Assembly: GCA_964460195.1 (NCBI GenBank)
Contig: CAYWPJ010000007.1
Coordinates: 1 to 46,713 of the forward strand
From: an uncultured Methanosarcinales archaeon
GTDB taxonomy: Archaea > Nanobdellota > Nanobdellia > Woesearchaeales > GW2011-AR9
Direction: 5' to 3'
Length of the DNA: 46,713 bases
Below the pieces are notes generated by a model. That model was not told where the DNA came from and did not search any database. It worked only from the letters and a program-made list of their open reading frames with translations. Each line of letters begins with the position of its first letter. Within the stretch, counting starts at the first letter, position 1. Made by a program: the position numbers and the translations under genes. Shown here piece after piece: positions 424-43,972 of the stretch.

Positions 424-3400
424 ATGCTCAAAGGACAAGTGGTGGCAGGAGATTTTTCCCGGATTGTCATGCGCATCAAGTCCGGCGTCACGGTCGAGCT
501 CGGTGAGCTGGTCGTCATCGAGGAAAACCAGGAAAAGTTCATCCTGCAAGTCTACGACCTGCTCTACGGCAGCCAGATCTCCCCACAGAACCTGGAAATG
601 GTCGCCGGGATGAACCTGGAAGAAGGCGGTTTCAGCCTCATGGACGAGCCTCTTCGGAATTACCGGCTCGCCCTGCTCAAGCCGGTTCTCAACGTCGGCG
701 AGACAAGCAAAACCTGCAAGAAGCTGCCTCCCTTCTTCGACTTGGTTCGGGGGATCCGCAGGGAAGACCTCAATTTTATCACCACTCCCGAGCATCCTTT
801 CTACCTCGGCAAATTGAGGAGCGGCAGCCAGGAGATGGACTTTGACCTCTTTCTGCCGGGGAAGGACGTCTTCAGCCATCATATCCTCATCCCAGCCAGT
901 ACTGGCAAGGGGAAGAGTCTCGATGAAAACGAAGAAGTGCTTATTAAACAAAATAATGTATTTTCAATAAAACTTATCGGAGAGATTGTTAACAATCCTC
1001 ATTTTAGGGATTCTAAAGTAGAGGTACTTAGTATGAACCCCAAAAATTATTCCGTAGATTTTAAGGAAATAACTAATTTTGTTAGGCATAAAGCTCCTTC
1101 CTTTATGTACCAAGTAACTACTGATAGCGGTCGAGAAGTAATGGTGACTAAAGATCATAATCTGTATGTTTTGAGAAATGGTCATCTGACCCTCTTGAAA
1201 ACACAAGAAATCTCCAACAAGGACTATCTTCCTCTCCCTTTGAAAATAAATGAGCTGGGAAACTTAAAAGAATTAAACCTCTTTGCTCTGTTGAAAAATC
1301 AACCCAAAGTATATGTGTTGTATGATAGAAATATTCTATCTTATTTAAAACCAAAAGAAGAATGCTTAAGGATTCTCTCAAAATATTTTACCAGACCCTT
1401 ACAAAAATATAATGATTTTGTAATGAAAAAGAATAAAATAAGGATTACCATTTTATCCAAATTGTTAAAAGAAAAATTGTCTCATGAAGCCTTAAAATTA
1501 GTTACATTAACAGACCAATACTTTAGTTTAGAACTAAAAGCAATCTACCCTTTGACTAAGGAATTCTTACAATTATTAGGATATTACATCGCGGAGGGAT
1601 ATTGTCTTAATGATAACACTTTTAGGATAAGCTGTTCAGAAGAAGAAGGAAAGAAATTGTTAAGGGAGATATTTACTACTCTCGGTCTACATTACTTTTG
1701 GGTTAAGAAAGAGGGTAAGGAAGTAGATGTAGGGATATCTTCTTCTATATTCACAAAGCTATTAAAAGAATTAGGGCTTGGGCGTGTATCCGGGGATAAG
1801 AGGTTGCCTGATTTTTTCATGAATCTCTCAAATGAAGACTTAAAGATTTTACTTAAAATTTATTTTGAAGGAGATGGAGGAGTAGATAAAGAAACGATCA
1901 TAACAAAAAGGAATTTTAATATTTCTACTACCACCAAATCAAAAAAACTTGCTAACGATATTTGTCTTGCTTTGTATAGGTATGGTATATTTTGCAGATG
2001 TAAGAAACTCTGGAAAAGATCTACAAATACAAACCATCAAGGAAACTGGTATTATCGGATTAAAATTTCTGGAAGAGCAAATATAGTGATTTTCTTATCA
2101 AAGATCGGCTTTCAATTCTCAAGGAAAAATGATGTTTTGAAACACCAATTAAATTATAAAGAAAACACAAACGTAGATGTAATACCCATAGAACCTAAAT
2201 TATTTAAATCCAAAAGATTACAAACAAATTTAAGCCAAAAACAATTCGCACTGAAATTGAAGTATTCCTATTCAATGATATCTGCAATTGAACTAGGAAG
2301 ACGAAGACCTAGTAGAACATTATTTAACGAAATGTTATTAAAATTTAAAAATTTTCAAGACTTAAAATATTTAACAAATTTTAGGTGGGATAAGATAAAA
2401 GAAGTTAAAAAAATAAAATACAATAAAAAATATGTTTACGATCTGACTGTGAAGGACAATAAAACATTCCTTGCAGGACATGGCGGGTTGTTTGTTCACA
2501 ACAGTAATTTAATGTCCTGCATCCTCTGGGATGTCGCCGACAAGGACTATGCCGGGATGCTCGTCCTCGACCCCCATGATGAATATTACGGCCGGACCGG
2601 ATGGGGGCTGAAAAACCATCCGCAAAAGGAGAGAATCAGCTATTACACCCCGGTCAGCCCCCCTTCCGGCGCCCAAACTTTGAAAATCAACATCCGAAAA
2701 CTAAAACCGGAGCATTTCCATGGCGCCGTTCCCTTATCAGACCCCCAGCGCCAGTGTTTCTACGTCTATCACCAAAAATTTCGGGACAACTGGATTTACC
2801 ATCTGTTAAGGGAAGAAAGAATTGAGAATGTCCGGTTCCATGAAGACACCCTGGCGGTGGCCAAAAGAAAACTGATTTCCCTGCTGAATTTGGAATTCCA
2901 GGAAGGGCAGCTCTTCTGCCAGGGAATTTTTGACACTGTCGCCGGGGAAAATACCGTCTCTGAAATTTGCCGGGAGTTGGAGCAGGGAAAAATAGTCATC
3001 ATCGACACCAGCTATTTTTCCGGGGCGGTGGAAATCCTGGTCGGCAGCCTGATCACGACGGAAATATTTGAAAAGTACAAATTCTACAAGAAGCAGGGGC
3101 AGCTGGATGACAAACCGGTCATCTCCGTCGTCCTGGAAGAGGCTCCCCGAGTCTTGGGGACAAAAGTCTTGGAGCAGGGCAGCAATGTCTTTGAATCAAT
3201 TGCCAGGGAAGGCCGAAAATTCAAGGTTGGTCTGATTGCCATCACCCAGCTGCCCTCGGAGATTCCTAAAAGCATCCTGGCCAACATGAACACCAAAATC
3301 ATTCTCGGGATTGAGATGAATTCAGAGCGGCAGGCGGTGATTGAATCTTCGCCGCAGGACCTCTCGCAGGACAACCGCAACATCGCTTCCCTGGACAAGG

Positions 3401-3525
3401 GGGAAGCTCTGGTCACTTCGACCTTCACCCGGTTTGCCGTGCCGGTCAAGATCCCTCTCTTCCGGGATTTTGCCAGGAGGAACCAGCAGAAGACCATCAG
3501 GCAGAGTTACGTTGGGTTTGGTTGA
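424..3525 (+). CDS. HerA/DUF87-type P-loop ATPase interrupted by an intein (extein about 504 aa)
   Basis: Splicing out 916..2502 joins ...PASTGKGK to [12 protein letters not shown]..., which restores Walker A GKGKS. Walker B is [12 protein letters not shown]. The C-terminal half ([18 protein letters not shown]) is typical of HerA/FtsK-like ATPases. It is a paralogue of the ATPase at 44008..45354. Confidence 0.8.
916..2502 (+). mobile_element. Intein (529 aa) with LAGLIDADG homing endonuclease, inserted in the P-loop
   Basis: N-terminal block [10 protein letters not shown], block B TKDH, C-terminal ...GGLFVHN followed by +1 Ser. Two LAGLIDADG motifs ([20 protein letters not shown]). An XRE-like HTH ([28 protein letters not shown]). 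The segment is clearly AT-rich compared with the GC-rich exteins. Confidence 0.8.
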
Positions 3526-14045: not shown

Positions 14046-14094
14046 AGTTTTCCGGGCATCAGCCTTCTGTCTTTGGGAAAGATGTTCTCTAAAT

Positions 14095-14198
14095 AAGGGG
14101 CTTCCCCCTGAGCAACCCCAGAGCTTTGCGAAAATCGTTTGCAGTAAAATACTAAATAAAATACTGTTTGCTGTGAGAATAAAAATGCGGACGGCAGG
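14095..14198 (-). repeat. Copy of the tRNA-Leu 3' end plus ~90 nt of its downstream flank (att-like scar)
   Basis: tgcggacggcagg (14186-14198) differs at one position from the tRNA 3' end tgcgggcggcagg (15904-15916). The adjoining ~90 nt parallels 15807-15903, including ggcttccccctgagcaaccccagagctttgcgaaaa. Confidence 0.75.
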
Positions 14199-14204
14199 TT
14201 AATC

Positions 14205-14453
14205 CTATCTATACACTCTTCCTCTTTTATCGAAAACTCTTACTTTCAGCCGTTTGTTCTGAAAGTCAATATCAATCAAGGCACGATAATCCCCAATCCT
14301 TAATTTATACCCTTCTCCTTCATAATGTTCAAGATAACGAAAAGGGTTTTCAGAAACTTCATCACATTTATGAAATATTCTGATAGCTATATCTTTGGGC
14401 AGAGTTTCTACATATTTTGCCGCTTTAGGGTGCCAGATTATTTCCCACGTCAT
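14205..14453 (-). CDS. RelE/ParE-family type II toxin
   Basis: 82 aa. The pattern ...LPKDIAIRIFHKCDEVSENPF...YKLRIGDYRALIDIDFQNKRLKVRVFDKRGRVY is typical RelE/ParE. 4-nt overlap with the upstream small gene. Confidence 0.8.
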   Translation of the reverse strand: MTWEIIWHPKAAKYVETLPKDIAIRIFHKCDEVSENPFRYLEHYEGEGYKLRIGDYRALIDIDFQNKRLKVRVFDKRGRVYR

Positions 14454-14650
14454 TGCAGAACACGTTTCTTCAATTCTTTATGTGTGATATATTCAGAATC
14501 AGGAGTGGCTCTCGCTTCGGCCAGCAATGCCCGGGCATAGTCTGTCAGCCTTCCTTCTTCAAAAAGGATATGTTTGATTATAGCCATATCTTGCTTAAGT
14601 TCTTCAAGATCTGCGTGCATATGTTCTGCCATTGCTTCAGTCATAAACAT
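14450..14650 (-). CDS. Cognate antitoxin (small helical protein)
   Basis: 66-aa ORF translationally coupled to the RelE gene. The C-terminal ...YITHKELKKRVL resembles the tail of the antitoxin at 43167..43418. Confidence 0.55.
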   Translation of the reverse strand: MFMTEAMAEHMHADLEELKQDMAIIKHILFEEGRLTDYARALLAEARATPDSEYITHKELKKRVLQ

Positions 14651-14686
14651 CTAAAACGACTGCTATTATAAAAAGATTGCGAAAAT

Positions 14687-14768
14687 AAAATGTGCGGACT
14701 GCAGGATAAGGGGGCTTCCCCCTGAGCAACCCCAGAGCTTCGCGAGTAATGAAAATGCGGACGGCAGG
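14687..14768 (-). repeat. Two further degenerate tRNA-Leu 3'-end/flank copies between the two TA cassettes
   Basis: tgtgcggactgcagg (14691-14705) and tgcggacggcagg (14756-14768). Between them is ggggcttccccctgagcaaccccagagcttcgcg, the same flank motif as at 14095 and 15807. Confidence 0.7.
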
Positions 14769-14778
14769 ACTCTATCCT

Positions 14779-15315
14779 TTATCCCAAAGCTTCATCTATA
14801 ATAGTCTCAATGTCGACTAACCTTTGCTCCGTTATCTTGCTCCAGCGCTGAGGAATAAACTGATTAAAGATATAATGGCGGATTTCAGCGGCAGTTAATC
14901 TCAAAGATAATAAATGAGCAATTAAAGCTACTCCGTGAAAAATATTCTCATCCGGAAAAAAGGGGGAAATATGAATCAACACCGAAAAATCATCCGTAAA
15001 CAAGGGCCGCTGCTCTTTTTTAGCTAATAGGAACATACTTAAATCAGCTTCCGTGATTCGCTGGCGGCCGCTTACCCCTAATATAATCTTTAATTCTTCT
15101 ACCCCTTCAACTTTTTTAATGATTATATTTCTTTGCAAGATTTCTTGGGCATATTTTCCCAGCAAATCTTGATGTTGAGAAAACTGTTTTAATTCTTCCT
15201 CAACCAAAGGAGAAATAACAAAATGAAATTTTTTTAGATTGATGAAGGGAAAATCTTTCGCTACTATCTGTAAAGATAAGAGTGTTCCGGTATCGCAGAT
15301 TACGTATTGATCCAT
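14779..15315 (-). CDS. PIN-domain-like toxin (VapC-like, extended C-terminus)
   Basis: Acidic residues in PIN-like order and spacing: ICDTGTL, VEEEL, ITEADLS, FTDDFS. 16-nt overlap with the upstream RHH-like gene. Confidence 0.55.
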   Translation of the reverse strand: MDQYVICDTGTLLSLQIVAKDFPFINLKKFHFVISPLVEEELKQFSQHQDLLGKYAQEILQRNIIIKKVEGVEELKIILGVSGRQRITEADLSMFLLAKKEQRPLFTDDFSVLIHISPFFPDENIFHGVALIAHLLSLRLTAAEIRHYIFNQFIPQRWSKITEQRLVDIETIIDEALG

Positions 15316-15605
15316 TTCTTAAATTTGCGGGTGCTTCTCACTATCTGCTGTATCTCGAAGGAACGCTGGGGGCCAAGAACTTTAACTAACCCGTAATAAT
15401 CAATTAATCCCATCCGGTAGAAGTCCGTAAGCATTTTTTCCATAAGGTAATAGCTAGGATTTTCTTTGATGTGTTCCAGCACGAAAACAGAGTTTTTAAT
15501 TAAAGTGCCTACAAACTGGCTTCGGTTAAGATGATGTTCTTGTAATATCTTATCTAATCGTTTGGTAGGTTCTTCCTCTAACGACATTTGTATTTTTTGT
15601 TTCAT
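15300..15605 (-). CDS. Ribbon-helix-helix (CopG-like) antitoxin candidate
   Basis: From ATG 15605: MKQKIQMSLEEEPTKRLDKILQEHHLNRSQFVGTLIKNS is an RHH-like N-terminus. The listed longer ORF (to 15734) runs into the tandem repeat array and is rejected. Confidence 0.5.
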   Translation of the reverse strand: MKQKIQMSLEEEPTKRLDKILQEHHLNRSQFVGTLIKNSVFVLEHIKENPSYYLMEKMLTDFYRMGLIDYYGLVKVLGPQRSFEIQQIVRSTRKFKKWINT

Positions 15606-15613
15606 GTGTGGAA

Positions 15614-15641
15614 GAAAGTTTCCATTATATATAAAACTTTC
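15614..15641 (-). promoter_or_regulatory. TATA-like box flanked by a 7-bp inverted repeat upstream of the RHH-PIN pair
   Basis: gaaagtt (15614-15620) and aactttc (15635-15641) bracket ttatatataaa, just upstream of ATG 15605 on the minus strand. The layout suits TA autoregulation. Confidence 0.35.
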
Positions 15642-15658
15642 TACATCTCTCCATCCAT

Positions 15659-15843
15659 AAGGGGGCTTCCCCCTTATCAACCCCAGGTGCTTCGCAAGGG
15701 AGCTTCCTCCTAAGCAACCCCAGATGCTTCGCAAGGGAGCTTCCTCCTAAGCAACCCCAGGTGCTTCGCAAGGGAGCTTCCTCCTAAGCAACCCCAGATG
15801 CTTCGCAAGGGAGCTTCCCCCTGAGCAACCCCAGACGCTTTGC
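15659..15843. repeat. Five head-to-tail 37-nt tandem repeats
   Basis: Units start at 15659, 15696, 15733, 15770 and 15807. Consensus aagggagcttcctcctaagcaaccccagrtgcttcgc. No spacers. The last unit merges into the tRNA downstream flank. Confidence 0.9.
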
Positions 15844-15903
15844 GAAAACCGTTTGCTGTGAAACGAAATACTAGATGAAATACTTTTTGCAGTGAAAAAT
15901 AAA

Positions 15904-16042
15904 TGCGGGCGGCAGGGATCGAACCTGCGTAGGCACTAAGCCAACAGATGACTTACAAGGAGTTTAGTCATTGCACTCTTGATGAGCCCTCATTACTCCA
16001 ATGCCTTGAGTCTGTCCCGTTTGACCACTCCGGCACGCCCGC
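15904..16042 (-). tRNA. tRNA-Leu (anticodon CAA) with a 55-nt intron at 37/38
   Basis: Minus strand reads GCGGGCG UG CCGGAGUGGUCAAACGGG ACAGA CUCAAG [55-nt intron] A UCUGU, long variable arm UGGCUUAGUGCCUAC, T-arm GCAGGUUCGAUCCCUGC, acceptor CGCCCGC, discriminator A. Acceptor and anticodon stems pair perfectly. CCA is not encoded. Confidence 0.85.
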
Positions 16043-16106
16043 ATCTTTAAGGTGTTTTTAATAGAAATTATATAAAATTAACTAAAATATTTTAAATTTT
16101 TCCTAG

Positions 16107-19667: not shown

Positions 19668-19913
19668 TCAATCATAAACGTCCTTTCGGTGATCAAAACA
19701 ATTAATGATAATCTTATCCCGAGCTAAACGATAAATAATTCTGAAGGGAGGAACTCTCACACTGCGATGATTTTTCCATCCGTACTTTAGCGGCTTTCCC
19801 GCTTCCGGCATCTCGCCAAGTTTCTGGAGTTGTTTGATTATCCTCAATCGAGTCGTTTTGTCTTTAATCTTCTGAAAATCTCTCTTAAATTCTTCAGAGA
19901 AGATGATTTCCAT
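19668..19913 (-). CDS. RelE/ParE-family type II toxin
   Basis: From ATG 19913: MEIIFSEEFKRDFQKIKDKTTRLRIIKQLQKL...HRSVRVPPFRIIYRLARDKIIINCFDHRKDVY. Confidence 0.75.
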   Translation of the reverse strand: MEIIFSEEFKRDFQKIKDKTTRLRIIKQLQKLGEMPEAGKPLKYGWKNHRSVRVPPFRIIYRLARDKIIINCFDHRKDVYD

Positions 19914-19971
19914 GATTTCATCCCCCGAGAAAATCTCGGATTTTCTGGGCACAAAAAATGCGTATCATTTT

Positions 19972-20256
19972 TTAGTGCATCAAAAGATCATCAATTTCTT
20001 CAGCCGCCATAGATGTATCTGCTTTAGTAAATTTTCCCGCTTTGATTTGCTCTTCGCTTTGTTCGATCATTTCTAACAAATGCATGTCCCTTGCCAATGC
20101 TTCCTTCCTTAACACTTTCAGCAAAATATTCCCTCCTTCATTAAAAACGAGGAATTTTGTGAACGGCTTTATACCGGCATCTTTTCTAATTTCGGCAGGG
20201 ATTACCACTTGCCCGTTTTCCGACAGCTTGGTTATCGAAACTTCCATTTTTGTCAC
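19972..20256 (-). CDS. AbrB/SpoVT/MazE-fold antitoxin
   Basis: LSENGQVVIPAEIRKDAGIKPFTKFLVFNEGGNILLKV is a SpoVT-AbrB swapped-hairpin signature. It lies directly upstream of the RelE/ParE gene. Confidence 0.7.
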   Translation of the reverse strand: MTKMEVSITKLSENGQVVIPAEIRKDAGIKPFTKFLVFNEGGNILLKVLRKEALARDMHLLEMIEQSEEQIKAGKFTKADTSMAAEEIDDLLMH

Positions 20257-20358: not shown

Positions 20359-20928
20359 CTACTTTATATCAATATCTTCCAATAAATCGTCTATCGTTTG
20401 GTATGGCAGCTTAAGCACTTCAAATAACTTTGGCTGCAAATCTTTTCTCGGTGTGGTTCTTCCGCTGGCATATCGAGAAATGGCTCCTTCGGTAATCCCT
20501 AATTCTATAGCCAGCCTTTTCTGGCTTATTCCTAATTTAGTTAATTGATCTTTAATCAAATGGCTTAATTCCTGATTTACAGGTTGTTGCTGTCTTTGTT
20601 TAGCTAAATGCTCCCGATAATCGTAATCTGATGCAAATCCTCTTTGTTTGACTAAATGCTCTTCATATTCGGTTCTTGATGCAAATCCTCTTTGTTTGAC
20701 TAAATGCTCTTCATATTCGGTTCTTGATGCAAATCCTTTTTGTTTGGCTAAATGCTCCTTATATTCGGTTCTTGATGCAAATCCTCTTTGTTTGGCTTTT
20801 GTATATCCGTAGGCAGTTGAATAAGAAACATCGGTCCTTCTGGCGATCTCCGCCACGGACAAATTTTCCGCGTATAACTCTTCCATTAACTGTTTCGTTT
20901 CGTCGGGTATTTTTTTAGGCATATCCAA
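20359..20928 (-). CDS. Dual-HTH DNA-binding protein with four tandem 16-aa repeats
   Basis: N-terminal resolvase/Hin-like HTH (LSVAEIARRTDVSYSTAYGY). Repeats QRGFASRTEYEEHLVK x4, encoded by 48-nt tandem repeats at 20630-20797. C-terminal XRE-type HTH (ISQKRLAIELGITEGAISRYASGRTTP). Confidence 0.7.
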   Translation of the reverse strand: MDMPKKIPDETKQLMEELYAENLSVAEIARRTDVSYSTAYGYTKAKQRGFASRTEYKEHLAKQKGFASRTEYEEHLVKQRGFASRTEYEEHLVKQRGFASDYDYREHLAKQRQQQPVNQELSHLIKDQLTKLGISQKRLAIELGITEGAISRYASGRTTPRKDLQPKLFEVLKLPYQTIDDLLEDIDIK

Positions 20929-29162: not shown

Positions 29163-32100
29163 ATGGCCGAAAATCCCCCGGAAAAAATCATCCCCCGCGT
29201 CATTGAGGAGGAGATGAAGGAAGCCTACGTCAACTATGCCATGTCCGTAATCGTCGGCCGGGCCCTGCCGGATGTGCGGGACGGGCTGAAGCCGGTGCAC
29301 CGGAGAATCCTCTATTCTATGTATGAGATGGGCCTGCTTCACAACAAACCATTCAAAAAGTGTGCCAGAATTGTCGGCGACTGCCTGGGCAAGTACCATC
29401 CTCACGGCGATACAGCCGTCTTCGATGCCCTGGTCAGGATGGCCCAGGACTTCTCCCTGCGCTACCCCCTGGTCAAGGGACAGGGAAATTTTGGATGCTT
29501 TACCGGCGATACAAAAGTGAAATTAACTGATGGCAGAGACTTGTCTTTTAAAGAATTAATTAAGGAACACCAGCAGGGAAAAAAGAATTACACCTACACT
29601 ATTAATTCTGAAGGGTTTATCGAAATTGCGGAAATAAAGAATCCGCGGCTGACGAAGAAAAATGAAAAGATTATGAAAGTCGTCCTTGACAATGGTGAAG
29701 AAGTAAAATGTACTTTAAACCATCGTTTTATGGTGCGGAATGGGAATTATAAACAAGCACAGAAACTAAAACCAGAAGATTCCTTAATGCCGGTTCATTT
29801 GAGGTTATCAACGGAGAAAGACAAAATAACGAAAATCGCACTAATCCCCGGGCTAAAGCCCGGGGTATTTAATCGTGCGATTTTCGGAATGAGAAATTGC
29901 GCCCTAAAGCCGCAACAAGCGGTGCCAAAAATACAAAGTATTTTTGAGCAGGCGGGGGTTTTAGACCCGGCGCAATTTCCCATAAAACCGGAATTGGTTG
30001 GTTATCAAATGATTTATCAGCCAGTGATAAACAAATGGGTTGGTTGCCATATTCTCGCCGATAACTGGAATTTGGAGCATGGGATTTATGGGAAAAATGC
30101 GGGAAAGATAAGACATCACGCTGATTTTGACAAACTAAATAACCGCCCGGATAATATTGAGAGATTGCCCTGGGGAAGGCATTGGGGGTTACATGCCAAG
30201 CACGCTTCTGAATTACATAAAAACCCTTATTATTGCCAAAAAATTGCTGAGGGAAGGGATAAGTTCTGGGCTGATGAAAAAAATAGGGAAAAAGCGGCAA
30301 AAAACTTGTCTGAACGGAACAAGAAAAACTGGCAGAACCCAAAGTACCGGGAACATATGCGTAAAGTGTTAAGAGAAGTTAACCTTGAATTTGTTAGAAA
30401 ACACCCGGAAGTAAGAAAGAGGAGCAGAGACAACCTCAAAAAACTTTGGAAAGATAAAGAATACCAAGACACAATGAGTAAATTAAAGTCGGAAGAAATG
30501 AAAAGAAGGCAAGAAAAAAGCGATCCTTCCTTAAGAAAATTTACTTCCGAAGAATCTAAAAAAATATGGTTAAAGTTAGGGCATCGCGAAGGTATTTCCA
30601 AGAAGATGAAACAGCAGTGGCAGAATCCTTCTTATCAGAAAAAAGTAATGAAAAATAAAGTTTTGAGCTATGTTAATTCTTTGACCCAAAAACATCCTAA
30701 GATAACCCCTCAGATTTATCAGCAAGAACGCAATAATAACTGGGTTCCATATTTTGAAAAAGCAATGAAATATTTTGAAAATTTCGATGATTTAGTTGAA
30801 CAAGCGAAAGTTTATAACCACAAAATTATTGGGGCAGAAATTCTTTCTGAACGGGAAGACGTTTACGATTTAACCATTGACGGGTCCCATAACTTTGCTC
30901 TTGCATCTGGCATCTTCGTCCACAACTCAATCGACGGCGACCGGGCAGCCGCCATGCGTTACGTCGAAGCCAAACTCTCCCGGATCGCCGAAGAGATGCT
31001 CAAAGACATCGAAAAGAAGACGGTCGATTTCAAGGAAAATTTCGACGGCTCGCTGGAAGAGCCGGAAGTCCTCCCCTCCAAGCTGCCTAATCTCCTGATC
31101 AACGGCTCCTCCGGCATCGCCGTGGGCATGGCCACTAATATCCCCCCCCACAATGTCCGGGAAGTCTGTGACGGCATCATCCGGACGATCGCCAATCCCG
31201 GGATTACTGCCGAAGAGCTGATGAAAATCATTCCCGGGCCGGATTTCCCGACCGGCGCGGAAGTCGTCTGCGGGCAGGCGCTGAGGTATGCCTATGCCAA
31301 AGGAAAAGGGAAAGTTACTGTCAAATCCATTGCCGAGGTCAAGGGCCAGAAGATCATCGTCACGGAGATTCCCTACCAAGTCAATAAGGCTGAGCTGATT
31401 GAGCACATCGCCAATTTGGTTAGGGACAAACGGGTTATCGGGATTAAAAATATCAACGACGAGTCTGACCGGGAAGGCATCCGAGTCGTCATCGACCTGA
31501 AGGAAGGGGTTGATGGAAATGTCATCCTTAACCAGCTTTACCAGTACAGCAACCTGCAGGTTTCTTTCGGCATCCAGATGCTCGCCTTAGTCGGCCAGCA
31601 GCCCAGACTGCTCGGGCTGAAAGAGATCATCCAGCACCACATCGGGCATCGGAAAGAAGTCATCACCCGGAGGACTAGATACGACTTGGAGGTGGCTGAA
31701 GCCAGGGTGCACATCCTGGAGGGTCTGCTCGTCGCTTTGGCTGACATTGACCGGGTCGTGCAGGGCATCAAAGCAAGCCAAACAATCGCCGATGCCGAGT
31801 CTTTTTTGACGGACACTTACCACCTGACGGGGATCCAGGCGAAAGCCATCCTGGAAATGCGGCTGCAGAAACTGGCTTCCCTGGAGCAGGAGAAAATCAG
31901 GGAGGAGCATCAGGGCCTGTTGAAACAGATTGAATCTTTCAAGGAGACCCTTGGTTCAGAGGCGAAGGTCTTCTCCTTGATTAAGGAAGAATTGGAAGAA
32001 ATAAAAACCAATCATGGCGATGAAAGAAGATCAAGAATCATCGCCGGCGAGGATGAAGATTTTGATATTGAGGAATTGATTGAAGACGAGCCGGCAGTCG

Positions 32101-33227
32101 TTACCATGAGCCATGCCGGCTATGTCAAAAGGCTGCCTCTGGACACTTATAAGATTCAAAAAAGGGGCGGCAAGGGGGTCAAGGCCGTCGGCATGAGGGA
32201 AGAGGATTTTATTGAATGGCTTTACATCGCCTCGACTCATGATTTCCTTCTCTGCTTTACCGACCAGGGCCAGCTTTACTGGCTCAAGGTTTACCAAATC
32301 CCGGAAGGAAGCCGGCAGGGGAAAGGGAAACACATTGCCAATGTCCTGGAATTGAAGCACGGGGAAAAAATCAGTGCCGTCATCCCGGTCAAAGATTTTA
32401 AAGTTGGGGGCTACCTGTTCATGGCTACCAAGCGGGGAACGGTCAAGAAGACGGAACTAATGGAATTCTCCAATCCGCGGAAGGGGGGAATCAGGGCGAT
32501 CAACCTGAACGGAAGCGATTTAGCTGAGGGAGGCGATGCCATCGAGGGGAGCCATCGGGAAGAAAGTGGTTCTTTCAGCGGAGATAGCTCTTTGGAGAAA
32601 GATGATTCTTATTCTTCCGGTGCGGGCAGTTCTTTAGAGCCGGGCGTTCCGGCAACGGAGAGCAGCTCTTCAGAGAATTCCGCTTCGGAGGGTTTGGCAA
32701 AGGAGAGCGATTCTCTGGTTCAGGTCCGCCTGACTACGGGAGATAAAGAAATCATTTTAGCGACTAAGAACGGGTTGGCCAACCGGTTTAAGGAAAGGGA
32801 CGTGCGGGCGATGGGAAGAACAGCCAAAGGAGTGAGGGGCATCCGGTTGAGGCGGAAGGACGAGCTGATCGGCATGCTGGCGGCGGAAGAGGGGCTGAAT
32901 ATTCTCACTTTGACCGAGAAGGGCTACGGAAAAAGGACGCCGGTTTCCCAGTACCGCTTATCCCGGCGGGGCGGGAAAGGAGTGGCTAATATTAAAATTA
33001 CGGAGAAGAACGGGCCGGTCAAGGCAGTGATGCTGGTCAACGGCGAGGAGGAAATCATGCTCGTTTCCCGGAACGGGATTGGCATCAGGGTGAGATGCTC
33101 GGATATTTCTATCATCGGCCGGGCGACGCAGGGGGTAAGGGTGATGAGGCTGGGGGAAGACGACCAGCTGGCGGCGGCGGCCAAGATTGTCGTTGAGGAA
33201 GAGAATGTCCCCCAGCAAAATATATAA
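29163..33227 (+). CDS. gyrA: DNA gyrase subunit A interrupted by an intein (extein about 877 aa)
   Basis: [35 protein letters not shown], catalytic-Tyr segment [10 protein letters not shown] after the intein, GyrA-box QKRGGKG, and a C-terminal beta-pinwheel repeat region. Confidence 0.9.
29496..30926 (+). mobile_element. Intein (477 aa) with HNH-type homing endonuclease, inserted at GNFG/SIDGD
   Basis: Starts [10 protein letters not shown]. Block B is TLNH. Ends GIFVHN followed by +1 Ser. HNH-like core [33 protein letters not shown]. Then basic W-x-(D/N)-x-x-Y-(R/Q) repeats ([33 protein letters not shown]). No LAGLIDADG motif. Confidence 0.8.
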
Positions 33228-42909: not shown

Positions 42910-43167
42910 CTAGTCAAGATTTTTGTATATGTTCTTTCTATGCCCGATAATTGTTACTTTAATCGTGTTGTTCCCCTGATCAAGGTCAGCAATAATCCTA
43001 TAATCGCCAACTCGAAGTTTATAGTCGGTTCTCCCCGTCAATCTTTCAAAGAAGTGAAATGGATTTTCTTTTGTTGAGATAAGCTTGTTGAAAATTCTTT
43101 CTTTTACATCTTTTGGAAGCTTGTTCAGGAATTCTATTGCTTCATCATCGAAAATGAGTTCATACAT
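42910..43167 (-). CDS. RelE/ParE-family type II toxin
   Basis: MYELIFDDEAIEFLNKLPKDVKERIFNKL...YKLRVGDYRIIADLDQGNNTIKVTIIGHRKNIY. It is a paralogue of 14205..14453. Confidence 0.8.
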   Translation of the reverse strand: MYELIFDDEAIEFLNKLPKDVKERIFNKLISTKENPFHFFERLTGRTDYKLRVGDYRIIADLDQGNNTIKVTIIGHRKNIYKNLD

Positions 43168-43418
43168 TACAATCCCAGCCTCTTTCGTGCTTCTGCTTCA
43201 GTTAGAAACTTTCCTCTTTTTATTCTTTCTCGTGCTTTTTCAATAGCTTGGATGGTTTCTTGACTAAGTTCAGGTTCAGTCTTGCAGGTTTTAGCTATAA
43301 ATACCACTTTCTTAATAACTTCGTCATAACTTTCATTTTTATATTCTCGAAATTGGTCTAATTCAAGCTTTGTATCTTCATGAATTTTTAGGGTTGTAGT
43401 TGTGTCCATAGTTCTCAC
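43167..43418 (-). CDS. Cognate antitoxin
   Basis: 83 aa with a 1-nt overlap with the toxin gene. C-terminal IKRGKFLTEAEARKRLGL is typical of RelE-partner antitoxins. Confidence 0.6.
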   Translation of the reverse strand: MRTMDTTTTLKIHEDTKLELDQFREYKNESYDEVIKKVVFIAKTCKTEPELSQETIQAIEKARERIKRGKFLTEAEARKRLGL

Positions 43419-43457: not shown

Positions 43458-43972
43458 TTACTTTTTTGCTGTTTCCCACAAAATGTCAAAATATCGCTTA
43501 TATGACTTGGCGACTTCTTCCGATTCTATGAGGATCACTGAAGGCTGTTCAGAGTAAATGAAGATGGCGACTTTATTGCCGTAAATCTCAGTAAAAGTTA
43601 AGTCCTCAAATGATTTAGAGATAAAACGAACTTCTGTTAATGGGAGTTTTTTCTTTTCTTGAGCAAAAGTACTTTTATCGAAGATAACTTTGAATTTTAT
43701 TCCTGCTTTAACTCGTGCTTCAATGATTTTAGGAAAATCCCATTTGAGAGCTTTCTCACTAAGACCAGCAGCTCCATAAGCATAATTGTTTTTCTCGTTC
43801 TAACAATATCGTTCAGAACTGTCTTTAATCCCTCTTTACCTGTGTAGACACATAAGGACATAACTATTACGTGATCCCTGCTTAATGAAATATTCATATT
43901 TATGAAACCAAGACGAACCGATACAAAGCGCAGACTAAAAAAAGTAATCCCCTTCCGCCTGCCTTTCACCAC
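43458..43972 (-). pseudogene. Frameshifted remnant of a TrmB-C-terminal-domain-like gene
   Basis: Frame 1 (43697..43972) reads ...GKEGLKTVLNDIVRTRKTIM. A second frame ending at stop 43458 reads AYGAAGLSEKALKWDFPKIIEARVKAGIKFKVIFDKS...PSVILIESEEVAKSYKRYFDILWETAKK. This parallels ...GILIKSEQLCKSQIEFFESLWKTA of the TrmB-like protein at 35062..35781. Confidence 0.5.

Follow-up and report, generated by a model that had tools for sequence, protein, structure and literature searches.

Accretion of cis-mobilizable elements (CIMEs) at tRNA 3′ ends is a known bacterial precedent for gene cassettes that stack next to a tRNA gene (PMC5704250). CIMEs have no integrase but keep both attL and attR, stack in tandem at the 3′ end of the target gene and use a recombinase from another element; toxin–antitoxin (TA) genes are frequent stabilizing cargo. 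Tandem accretion of CIMEs at the 3′ ends of tRNA or other genes was reportedly described by Pavlovic in 2004 for the integrative and conjugative element (ICE) and integrative and mobilizable element (IME) systems of Streptococcus. DPANN archaea have tiny genomes and no cultured genetic systems and, to our knowledge, their mobile elements and routes of gene exchange are almost uncharted. Here, we analyzed contig CAYWPJ010000007.1 (the window), a 46.7-kb archaeal chromosome segment in which two TA operons and several non-coding repeat units stand in tandem next to a tRNA-Leu gene. At tRNA-Leu genes of related genomes the cassettes recur in different orders, which suggests a small integrase-less cassette system of the kind better known from bacteria.

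In the array, att sites are retained, genes for integration and transfer are absent and the units lie in tandem at the target, all of which belong to the definition of CIMEs and accretion (PMC5704250). Among described systems, CIME accretion comes closest to the array, followed by the tRNA-anchored tycheposon islands. Different from CIMEs, which are kilobases long, bacterial and recognizably derived from an ICE or IME that is usually adjacent, the units described here are 0.05–1.2 kb in size, archaeal (DPANN) and contain one operon or none; no parent element is in sight, and the units are often paired with a hairpin motif, which we termed R. Derivation from an adjacent ICE or IME, or mobilization in cis by one, was not seen in the ∼12 arrays examined; no ICE/IME-like genes and no plasmid or virus backbone genes lie beside them.

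Archaeal plasmids and viruses that integrate into tRNA genes (SSV-type elements, pTN3 and other elements with type II tyrosine integrases, and the integrated mobile genetic elements of Thaumarchaeota and Thermococcales) also target the tRNA 3′ end, generate direct repeats and regenerate the tRNA; for the non-suicidal (type II) integrases, tandem integration has been reported (PMC7253208). However, these elements are 5–40 kb in size and encode an integrase, whereas the window array contains neither an integrase nor any other backbone gene. Prochlorococcus tycheposon islands (bioRxiv 10.1101/2020.12.28.424599) likewise grow next to tRNA genes by successive integrations and hold partial tRNA repeats and degraded remnants, but they are bacterial, 10–20 kb in size and carry integrase and replication modules, and their remnants lack clean boundaries. 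Integron cassettes and the pdif modules of Acinetobacter resemble the array in another respect: they are sub-kilobase, single-operon cassettes, often of TA genes, which are bounded by recombination sites and served by a recombinase encoded elsewhere. In the window, the tRNA 3′ end, copied directly and followed by a T-run, forms the site, instead of a folded attC site or an inverted XerC/D pdif pair. Different from integrons, the window array has no attI/IntI platform, and its cassettes have their own promoters. The literature that we searched did not describe units of 0.05–1.2 kb with one operon or none, a cassette pool shared across tRNA-Leu isoacceptor genes in DPANN, or a conserved hairpin motif that abuts a tRNA-end copy.

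We propose that discrete cassettes without an integrase entered the tRNA-Leu 3′ end and internal copies of it one after another by site-specific recombination, with a recombinase acting in trans, and that the array formed in this way; we put the probability of this reading at roughly 0.62. Read in the direction of the tRNA, the array begins with the tRNA core, followed by a T-run and the 55-nt flank A, five 37-nt R units, the first TA operon (TA1) and a core copy; next come a shortened flank with R, a degenerate core, the second TA operon (TA2), another core copy and a full flank A with R. On the distal side, the array is bordered by the 3′ end of a convergent gene of 96 residues.

The tRNA-Leu(CAA) gene (15904–16042, minus strand) contains a 55-nt intron in the anticodon loop, and its product is predicted to fold normally. 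It was called at 15903–16043 on the minus strand by ARAGORN with introns allowed, and it matched RF00005 at 15904–16042 (43.6 bits, E 2e-7) in the permissive mode of Rfam. Neither default ARAGORN nor the gathering mode of Rfam called the gene; default tools overlook it because of its intron. Intron-aware ARAGORN also called a tRNA-Glu at 31039–31654, which has a 523-nt ‘intron’ and lies inside gyrA; we rejected it as a false positive. Extra introns in the D-loop and T-loop were observed in tRNA genes of DPANN contigs (L027, 4293–4495; L055, 216–375; L020 and L023; L019), and these too are overlooked by standard tRNA finders. In the same community as the window (sequencing runs X1–X3), intron-less tRNA-Leu(CAG) and tRNA-Leu(TAG) genes share both ends with the CAA gene.

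The attachment core is formed by the last 13 nt of the tRNA gene (15904–15916, minus strand; CCTGCCGCCCGCA, also given as CCTGCCGYCCGCA), after which a T-run follows. A T-run behind a tRNA gene serves as a terminator in archaea. Core copy 1 (14756–14772, minus strand) reads GAGT plus CCTGCCGTCCGCA and is located directly downstream of TA1. The degenerate core copy (14693–14705, minus strand; CCTGCAGTCCGCA) abuts the TTAT that ends the adjacent R motif, without any spacer. Core copy 3 (14186–14198, minus strand; CCTGCCGTCCGCA) is located 6 nt past the stop codon of the RelE-type toxin gene. All repeat copies have the same orientation. The 16-mer AAATGCGGRCGGCAGG, which spans the core, has five matches in the window against 0.63 expected. 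They are located at 15901 (in the tRNA, G variant), at 14753 and 14183 (A variant, 12/13 to the tRNA end) and at 14690 (three mismatches); the fifth match, at 43951 with three mismatches, lies outside the array and was taken as chance. The original prediction, made from this DNA alone, had the 13-nt tRNA-Leu end recurring at 14756–14768, at 14186–14198 and, in degenerate form, at about 14691–14705, and the motif scan bore this out.

The internal cores are of a different type from the neighboring tRNA end. In the window they carry T (cgTccgc), like the tRNA-Leu genes of related contigs L016, L027 and L035, whereas the resident tRNA carries C. In core copy 1, 17 nt agree with the 3′ end of an L035-type tRNA-Leu and not with the resident tRNA. 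L035 shows the reverse: its tRNA has T and its distal core copy has C. In L038, the working tRNA ends in cgtccgca (5′ strand gcggatg) and a displaced 33-nt copy ends in cgcccaca; the latter is of the type found in L046, in which the 5′ acceptor strand is gtgggcg (L038, 1997–2118 and 2714–2747). From these sequences, the 3′ strand of the acceptor stem of the target tRNA seems to be replaced on integration, which would imply a compensatory change on the 5′ strand. Non-identical, foreign-type cores are what short-core exchange between differing sites predicts, and they therefore count against a simple duplication in situ. One further observation was made at L035 4351–4401, just upstream of tRNA-Leu(CAA): a minihelix-like piece (tgcggacgtg, a hairpin and cgtccgca), in which tRNA acceptor strands flank a single hairpin.

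The non-coding part of the array is repetitive. Flank A copy 1 (15845–15903, minus strand) consists of the T-run and ∼55 nt and is homologous to 14132–14185. It is followed by the five tandem 37-nt R units (15657–15844, minus strand), which were defined by a tandem repeat finder and a motif scan; Tandem Repeats Finder gave a period of 37, 4.9 copies and a score of 301 on 15659–15840. The final unit of this tandem array (15657–15686) equals the R consensus, CTGGGGTTGATAAGGGGGAAGCCCCCTTAT, and forms a perfect 9-bp hairpin (z −2.07). The short R unit (14706–14755, minus strand) comprises a T-run, a shortened flank from which 44 nt are deleted relative to 14132–14185, and R with its final TTAT. 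The terminal R unit (14092–14185, minus strand) is made up of flank A copy 2 and one single R, without a closing core. GCTTCCCCCTGAGCAACCCCAG occurs seven times, against 0 expected, all within 14100–15834 and five times inside the 37-nt array. A 144-residue open reading frame (ORF; 15300–15734) that reads through the 37-nt array is spurious. In run X1, an A/G polymorphism was observed at 15701; it hints at copy or sequence variation in the population.

Pairwise alignment related the repeat copies to the tRNA-Leu end and to one another. The two long copies, 15808–15916 and 14097–14198, agree in 92 of 110 alignment columns, and the homology extends up to ∼95 nt downstream of the core; the copy at 14711–14768 is the 14097–14198 copy minus 44 internal nt (57/58 identical). 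The recurrence of up to ∼90 nt of downstream flank in one orientation, as first noted, was thus upheld by the alignment. What had been overlooked is that this flank contains a discrete R unit, that the unit is amplified five-fold in tandem by the tRNA and that TA1 has lost its upstream core.

The repeated ∼90-nt flank is, to judge from its sequence matches, a discrete and widespread non-coding unit that occurs at several different tRNA genes. R is a conserved hairpin motif of ∼40 nt whose 5′ half is invariant; the invariant sequence CTGGGGTTG accompanies the hairpin. Across 13 distinct copies the 9-bp hairpin is 89.6% paired, with one G-C to C-G swap. We scanned public collections with an R pattern and obtained 13 metagenome and 9 genome matches, 10 and 4 of which, respectively, are chance matches in unrelated GC-rich bacteria. 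The genuine ones are in Woesearchaeota and other archaeal metagenome-assembled genomes, and all of them adjoin tRNA 3′ ends (tRNA-Leu CAG, GAG and TAG, tRNA-Ala and others). At seven independent loci beside the lineage of the window, R lies 9–130 nt past the tRNA, or past one cassette gene (L038), and 1–11 nt ahead of a copy of the 3′ end of the same tRNA. The copy is 10 nt long at tRNA-Ala, 15–17 nt at tRNA-Leu(GAG) and 33 nt at tRNA-Leu(CAG) and tRNA-Leu(TAG); the longest, seen in one case, is ∼54 nt and includes a T-loop intron. The spacer between R and the copy (gtgagaatct or ggtgaagagt) is a diverged T-loop; R, spacer and core would therefore be laid out like the element-side arm and core of an attP site, which becomes attR after integration.

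More R units were found on contigs of the source community, behind a different tRNA and, probably, behind the intron-less tRNA-Leu(CAG), at the same depth. In runs X1–X3, a 36-nt flank and then an R unit follow a tRNA end that matches the window tRNA over ∼30 nt; this end probably belongs to the CAG gene, which has an equal contig depth. In L022 (1–360, minus strand), at least three tandem 82-nt units are present, each made of a 15-nt tRNA-Leu(GAG) end, a T-run and R; an older, degenerate R is located nearer the tRNA. In an Rfam scan, nothing supported a function of R as an RNA, be it a C/D box or a member of a known family.

TA1 is composed of two overlapping genes. The candidate antitoxin (15300–15605, minus strand) is an ORF of 101 residues, with a TATA box (tttatatata) ∼20 nt upstream, at about 15624–15633. 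It has no match in Pfam, NCBIfam or PHROG; its partner in L035 is 74% identical, and the promoter block is conserved in five genomes. The toxin (14779–15315, minus strand; 178 residues) overlaps the antitoxin stop codon (gene overlap 15300–15315). No sequence family was matched by it among the Pfam, NCBIfam and PHROG profiles, and it was assigned by fold to the PIN-domain (VapC-like) proteins, with a C-terminal extension. The AlphaFold2 (AF2) model, built with ten homologs, has a predicted local distance difference test (pLDDT) score of 92.2; the top Foldseek matches are all PIN/VapC proteins (PAE2754, VapC20 and VapC4) with a probability of 1.0, and invariant acidic residues are present at the expected places (D8, E41, D91 and D108/D109). 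With a predicted PIN-fold toxin, these acidic residues and a small overlapping antitoxin gene upstream, TA1 is a putative type II VapBC pair.

In TA2, the candidate antitoxin (14450–14650, minus strand) is an ORF of 66 residues with the TATA box ctttttataata ∼20 nt upstream; in L046, the RelE homolog has a partner that is 67% identical to this ORF. The toxin (14205–14453, minus strand; 82 residues) overlaps the antitoxin stop by 4 nt (14450–14453) and belongs to the RelE/ParE family (Pfam PF05016, 3.1e-5, above the family cut-off); many of its 515 homologs, in Nanoarchaeia and Pacearchaeota, are named RelE/ParE. By sequence family and gene order, TA2 would thus be a type II RelBE/ParDE pair, with a RelE/ParE-fold toxin and a small overlapping antitoxin gene upstream. 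One ribbon-helix-helix (RHH)–PIN pair and one antitoxin–RelE pair had been placed between the repeat copies. RelE was confirmed by Pfam and PIN by fold only, and the RHH label is based on inspection of the N-terminus by eye alone.

The presence and order of the cassettes, and the tRNA that hosts them, vary between genomes. L035 is syntenic with the window: it contains the same LTD protein, the small ORFs, an intron-bearing tRNA-Leu(CAA), RNase J (71% identical) and PCNA. Its array consists of the tRNA, a short R unit, a degenerate core, TA1 and a second degenerate core; the RelE cassette, the long flank A and the 37-nt array are all missing from it. In L035 the short R unit adjoins the tRNA, and it is orthologous to the one in the middle of the window array (14693–14768, cores included); TA1 and this unit therefore stand in opposite order in the two genomes. 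The R-TTAT of L035 runs into the core as in the window, but a single base (c) separates the two and the core, CGGCAGTCCGCC, is more degenerate.

Closer homologs of the TA1 toxin (80–83% identical) are present in other chromosomal neighborhoods in L025, L026 and L027. In L025, R, a spacer and a core precede TA1, which is followed by a core-like copy and an ORF of 177 residues (ORF177); compared to L025, the window has lost 36 nt that hold the core between R and TA1, and TA1 in the window has no upstream core of its own. In L026, TA1 directly follows a tRNA-like 3′ part; in L027, tRNA-Leu(CAG), a rhodanese/metallo-β-lactamase (MBL) gene on the other strand, a core-like copy and TA1 are arranged in this order. 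In all three, the TA1 homology starts straight after the core and T-run, with an identical left boundary (tGGATGGA and on to the TATA box), and stops no more than 8 nt past the stop codon. A distant TA1 homolog in L036 (51% identical) has no cores at all.

TA2 is found elsewhere too. The clearest case is L046–L053 (toxin 73% identical), in which the tRNA-Leu(TAG) 3′ end is repeated perfectly over 14 nt on either side of the pair; N masks the second of these repeats in L052. In L038, tRNA-Leu(TAG) and an ORF of 166 residues (ORF166) are followed by R, a spacer, the 33-nt tRNA copy and TA2. ORF166 is homologous to ORF177 of L025, and the family occurs again at tRNA-Leu(CAA) in L055, where a 53-nt non-R insert and then a core copy stand between the tRNA and the ORF. 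This orphan family of 166–177 residues (L038, 2124–2624; L025, 1022–1555; L055, 452–952) has only three database relatives. Neither a Pfam, NCBIfam or PHROG match nor, by eye, an HUH or other obvious catalytic motif was found in ORF166/177; its AF2 model (pLDDT 38) gives no fold information that would bear on the idea of a small recombinase. The cassettes seen so far are thus TA1, TA2, the 166/177-residue orphan ORF and the rhodanese/MBL gene, and they are hosted by tRNA-Leu(CAA), tRNA-Leu(CAG) and tRNA-Leu(TAG) in differing neighborhoods and orders (L025, L026, L027, L038, L046 and L055). No fully empty tRNA site was recovered among related genomes.

How the array was formed can be weighed against three other explanations. 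Direct repeats of the tRNA 3′ part with an intact tRNA at one end were found in the window and also in L046, L016, L038 and others, and content differs at the same site in a relative (in the syntenic L035, TA2 and the long R units are missing and TA1 is positioned differently), as expected for tRNA-targeted integrative elements; an integrase of its own is not encoded by the array. The array might instead consist of fossils, in which full-size plasmids or viruses with integrases entered the tRNA-Leu site serially and were afterwards whittled down by deletion to TA operons and att scars, with no mobility of mini-cassettes today. Decay into integrase-less remnants flanked by att sites is well documented (PMC5704250; tycheposon islands). 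No recombinase was found near the arrays, further assemblies of this population show an identical arrangement, several cores are degenerate (14693–14705; L035, 5567–5579; L025, 962–974; L027, 5636–5648) and certain closing cores are absent, all of which would suit such a history. However, independent decay would not yield the same tight boundaries around TA1 in five genomes and around TA2 in two, which leave no more than ∼60 nt upstream and ∼40 nt downstream, at different tRNA-Leu isoacceptor genes and neighborhoods. In addition, no remnant or fragment of an integrase, replication or capsid gene was found in the ∼12 arrays. We therefore regard this history, the main rival, as unlikely. Local tandem duplication, by which slippage or unequal crossing-over copied the tRNA 3′ end and its trailer and the TA operons came by unrelated means, could account for the ∼95 nt of non-tRNA flank that the copies share at 84% identity, which is more than the exchange of a 13-nt core needs, and for the 37-nt and 82-nt units, amplified five times in the window and at least three times in L022. 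Duplication does not account for three observations: the copies share the T variant, and one of them 17 nt, with another tRNA-Leu; at other tRNA genes, the 3′ end of the local tRNA brackets the same TA and ORF cassettes; and R is kept behind unrelated tRNAs, with a different tRNA segment duplicated at each. As the origin of the whole array, duplication appears very unlikely to us.

Archaea, DPANN among them, are reported to contain integrons (PMC9668308), and the cassettes are small, TA-rich and in the same orientation. In a true integron, or in a cluster of attC sites lacking integron-integrases (CALIN), the repeat units would be attC sites, processed as folded single strands by an IntI-type integrase. 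On neither strand is the folding of the units better than that of shuffled sequence (z 0.01 and −0.46; a further unit fold gave z 0.31), and only the local 9-bp hairpin stands out; R″/R′ boundaries of the GTTRRRY type are absent, and the repeats are direct tRNA-end copies. No attC sites were found, and neither was an intI/attI/Pc platform with promoterless cassettes; each operon has its own promoter, and no IntI is encoded in the window. This explanation is scarcely credible. The original prediction had offered both serial integration at a tRNA att site and an integron-like cassette array. The former is well supported by the relatives, namely by L035 without the RelE cassette, by the same boundaries at other tRNA-Leu genes and by the foreign cores; without IntI and attC-like folds, and with own TATA boxes, the latter survives as an analogy only. 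Casposons and transposons were ruled out because there are no terminal inverted repeats and no target duplication of fixed length (the duplicated tRNA segment varies from 10 to ∼54 nt); no transposase was found either. Elements of the IS200/IS605 type (palindrome-associated transposable elements, PATEs) were ruled out as well, since only one end has a hairpin, direct repeats occur in every case and a Y1 transposase match is missing. We also considered whether the repeats might be Xer/dif-type or CRISPR-like, and rejected both ideas.

Several results weigh against serial recombination of mobile cassettes. No recombinase family was found among the 39 window ORFs scanned against Pfam, in agreement with the earlier statement that no integrase lies nearby, nor in precomputed domain lists for 3–6 kb around seven arrays (L025–L027, L035, L036, L038 and L046). 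Seven of the window ORFs were re-scanned against PHROGs (they overlap the 39), again with no recombinase. Two further assemblies from this population, with three contig records between them, have the identical arrangement. The comparison of related tRNA-Leu loci, which had been proposed as a check, thus gave a divided answer: cassette presence and order vary in L035 and others, and within the population they do not. TA1 in L035 has diverged about as much as housekeeping genes; the L035 copy may therefore be vertically inherited. Units of 45–130 bp are too small to recombine as free circles, and R-only units therefore need another origin, for example deletion or slippage. The 37-nt array in the window and the 82-nt array in L022 indicate that local duplication also operates. 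Finally, the closing core is missing from the terminal R unit of the window and from L026, L027 and L038. Look-ups of exact proteins for strain variants of the window locus returned identical arrangements or nothing; in the source-community runs X1–X3, the locus is present solely as Logan contigs at ∼4x depth. Viral contigs were scanned with two R patterns and with the tRNA-Leu 3′ end; no viral or plasmid attP emerged, only chance matches or bacterial phage tRNA genes.

If the array was built by serial site-specific recombination, it may have grown as follows. The units (0.05–1.2 kb, none with a recombinase) would be, in the window, the VapBC-like pair, the RelE-type pair and three non-coding units. 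Each incoming unit, possibly as a circular intermediate, would bring its own core copy, so that the tRNA is regenerated and older units are pushed outward, or the unit is inserted at an internal core. A non-coding unit ends in R right before a core copy, and R may thus act as an arm site, at the position of the element-side arm of attP. The recombinase is most likely a tyrosine integrase, which would be supplied in trans by a gene at another place in the genome or by a visiting element. The cassettes may still be mobile today. The T-run behind each core could serve as a terminator for the preceding unit, and the TA operons would be transcribed from their own TATA boxes. TA cargo would make the loss of a cassette costly, which would explain the persistence of units that carry only TA genes. 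Later, slippage or unequal exchange may have amplified R to five copies and deleted one core and part of one flank.

The rest of the window is that of an archaeal chromosome, with genes for PCNA, aRNase J, RIO kinase, diphthamide synthase and ScpB; related contigs are labeled Woesearchaeota, Nanoarchaeia or GW2011_AR9-like. A HerA-type ATPase (424–3525) and GyrA (29163–33227) contain one intein each, the former with a LAGLIDADG domain. Two more ParE-type TA pairs are located at 19668–20256 and 42910–43418, with MazE/AbrB as the partner in one and DUF7557 in the other; neither is flanked by a tRNA core or R. A block of lower GC (0.36–0.41) at 19.7–27.5 kb may be an island or a defense locus. 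It encodes a TA pair, a helix-turn-helix (HTH) protein with a 48-nt in-frame tandem repeat (20593–20797), an HNH-repeat protein, an orphan of 313 residues and a SNF2-family helicase of 1215 residues.

On a broader view, which we put forward with considerable reserve, DPANN archaea (Woesearchaeota/Nanoarchaeia) may have a tRNA-anchored, integron-like gene-cassette system. In such a system, an unlinked recombinase, possibly encoded by the host, would recognize a composite site of R hairpin and tRNA-end copy and would shuffle sub-kilobase single-operon cassettes (TA pairs, orphan ORFs, the rhodanese/MBL gene) from one tRNA 3′ end to another, mostly at tRNA-Leu but also at some other tRNA genes; integration would rewrite the 3′ strand of the acceptor stem and force compensation on the 5′ strand. 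The R motif provides a 30-nt search handle for such sites and, via them, for the missing recombinase. If true, DPANN archaea would turn over their flexible genome in a simple and testable way, through a pool of integrase-less single-operon cassettes that recur at different tRNA-Leu genes, and the logic of bacterial CIME accretion and integron cassettes would extend to archaea with a different type of site. The apparent swapping of the acceptor-stem 3′ strand by integration could, in turn, drive tRNA evolution.

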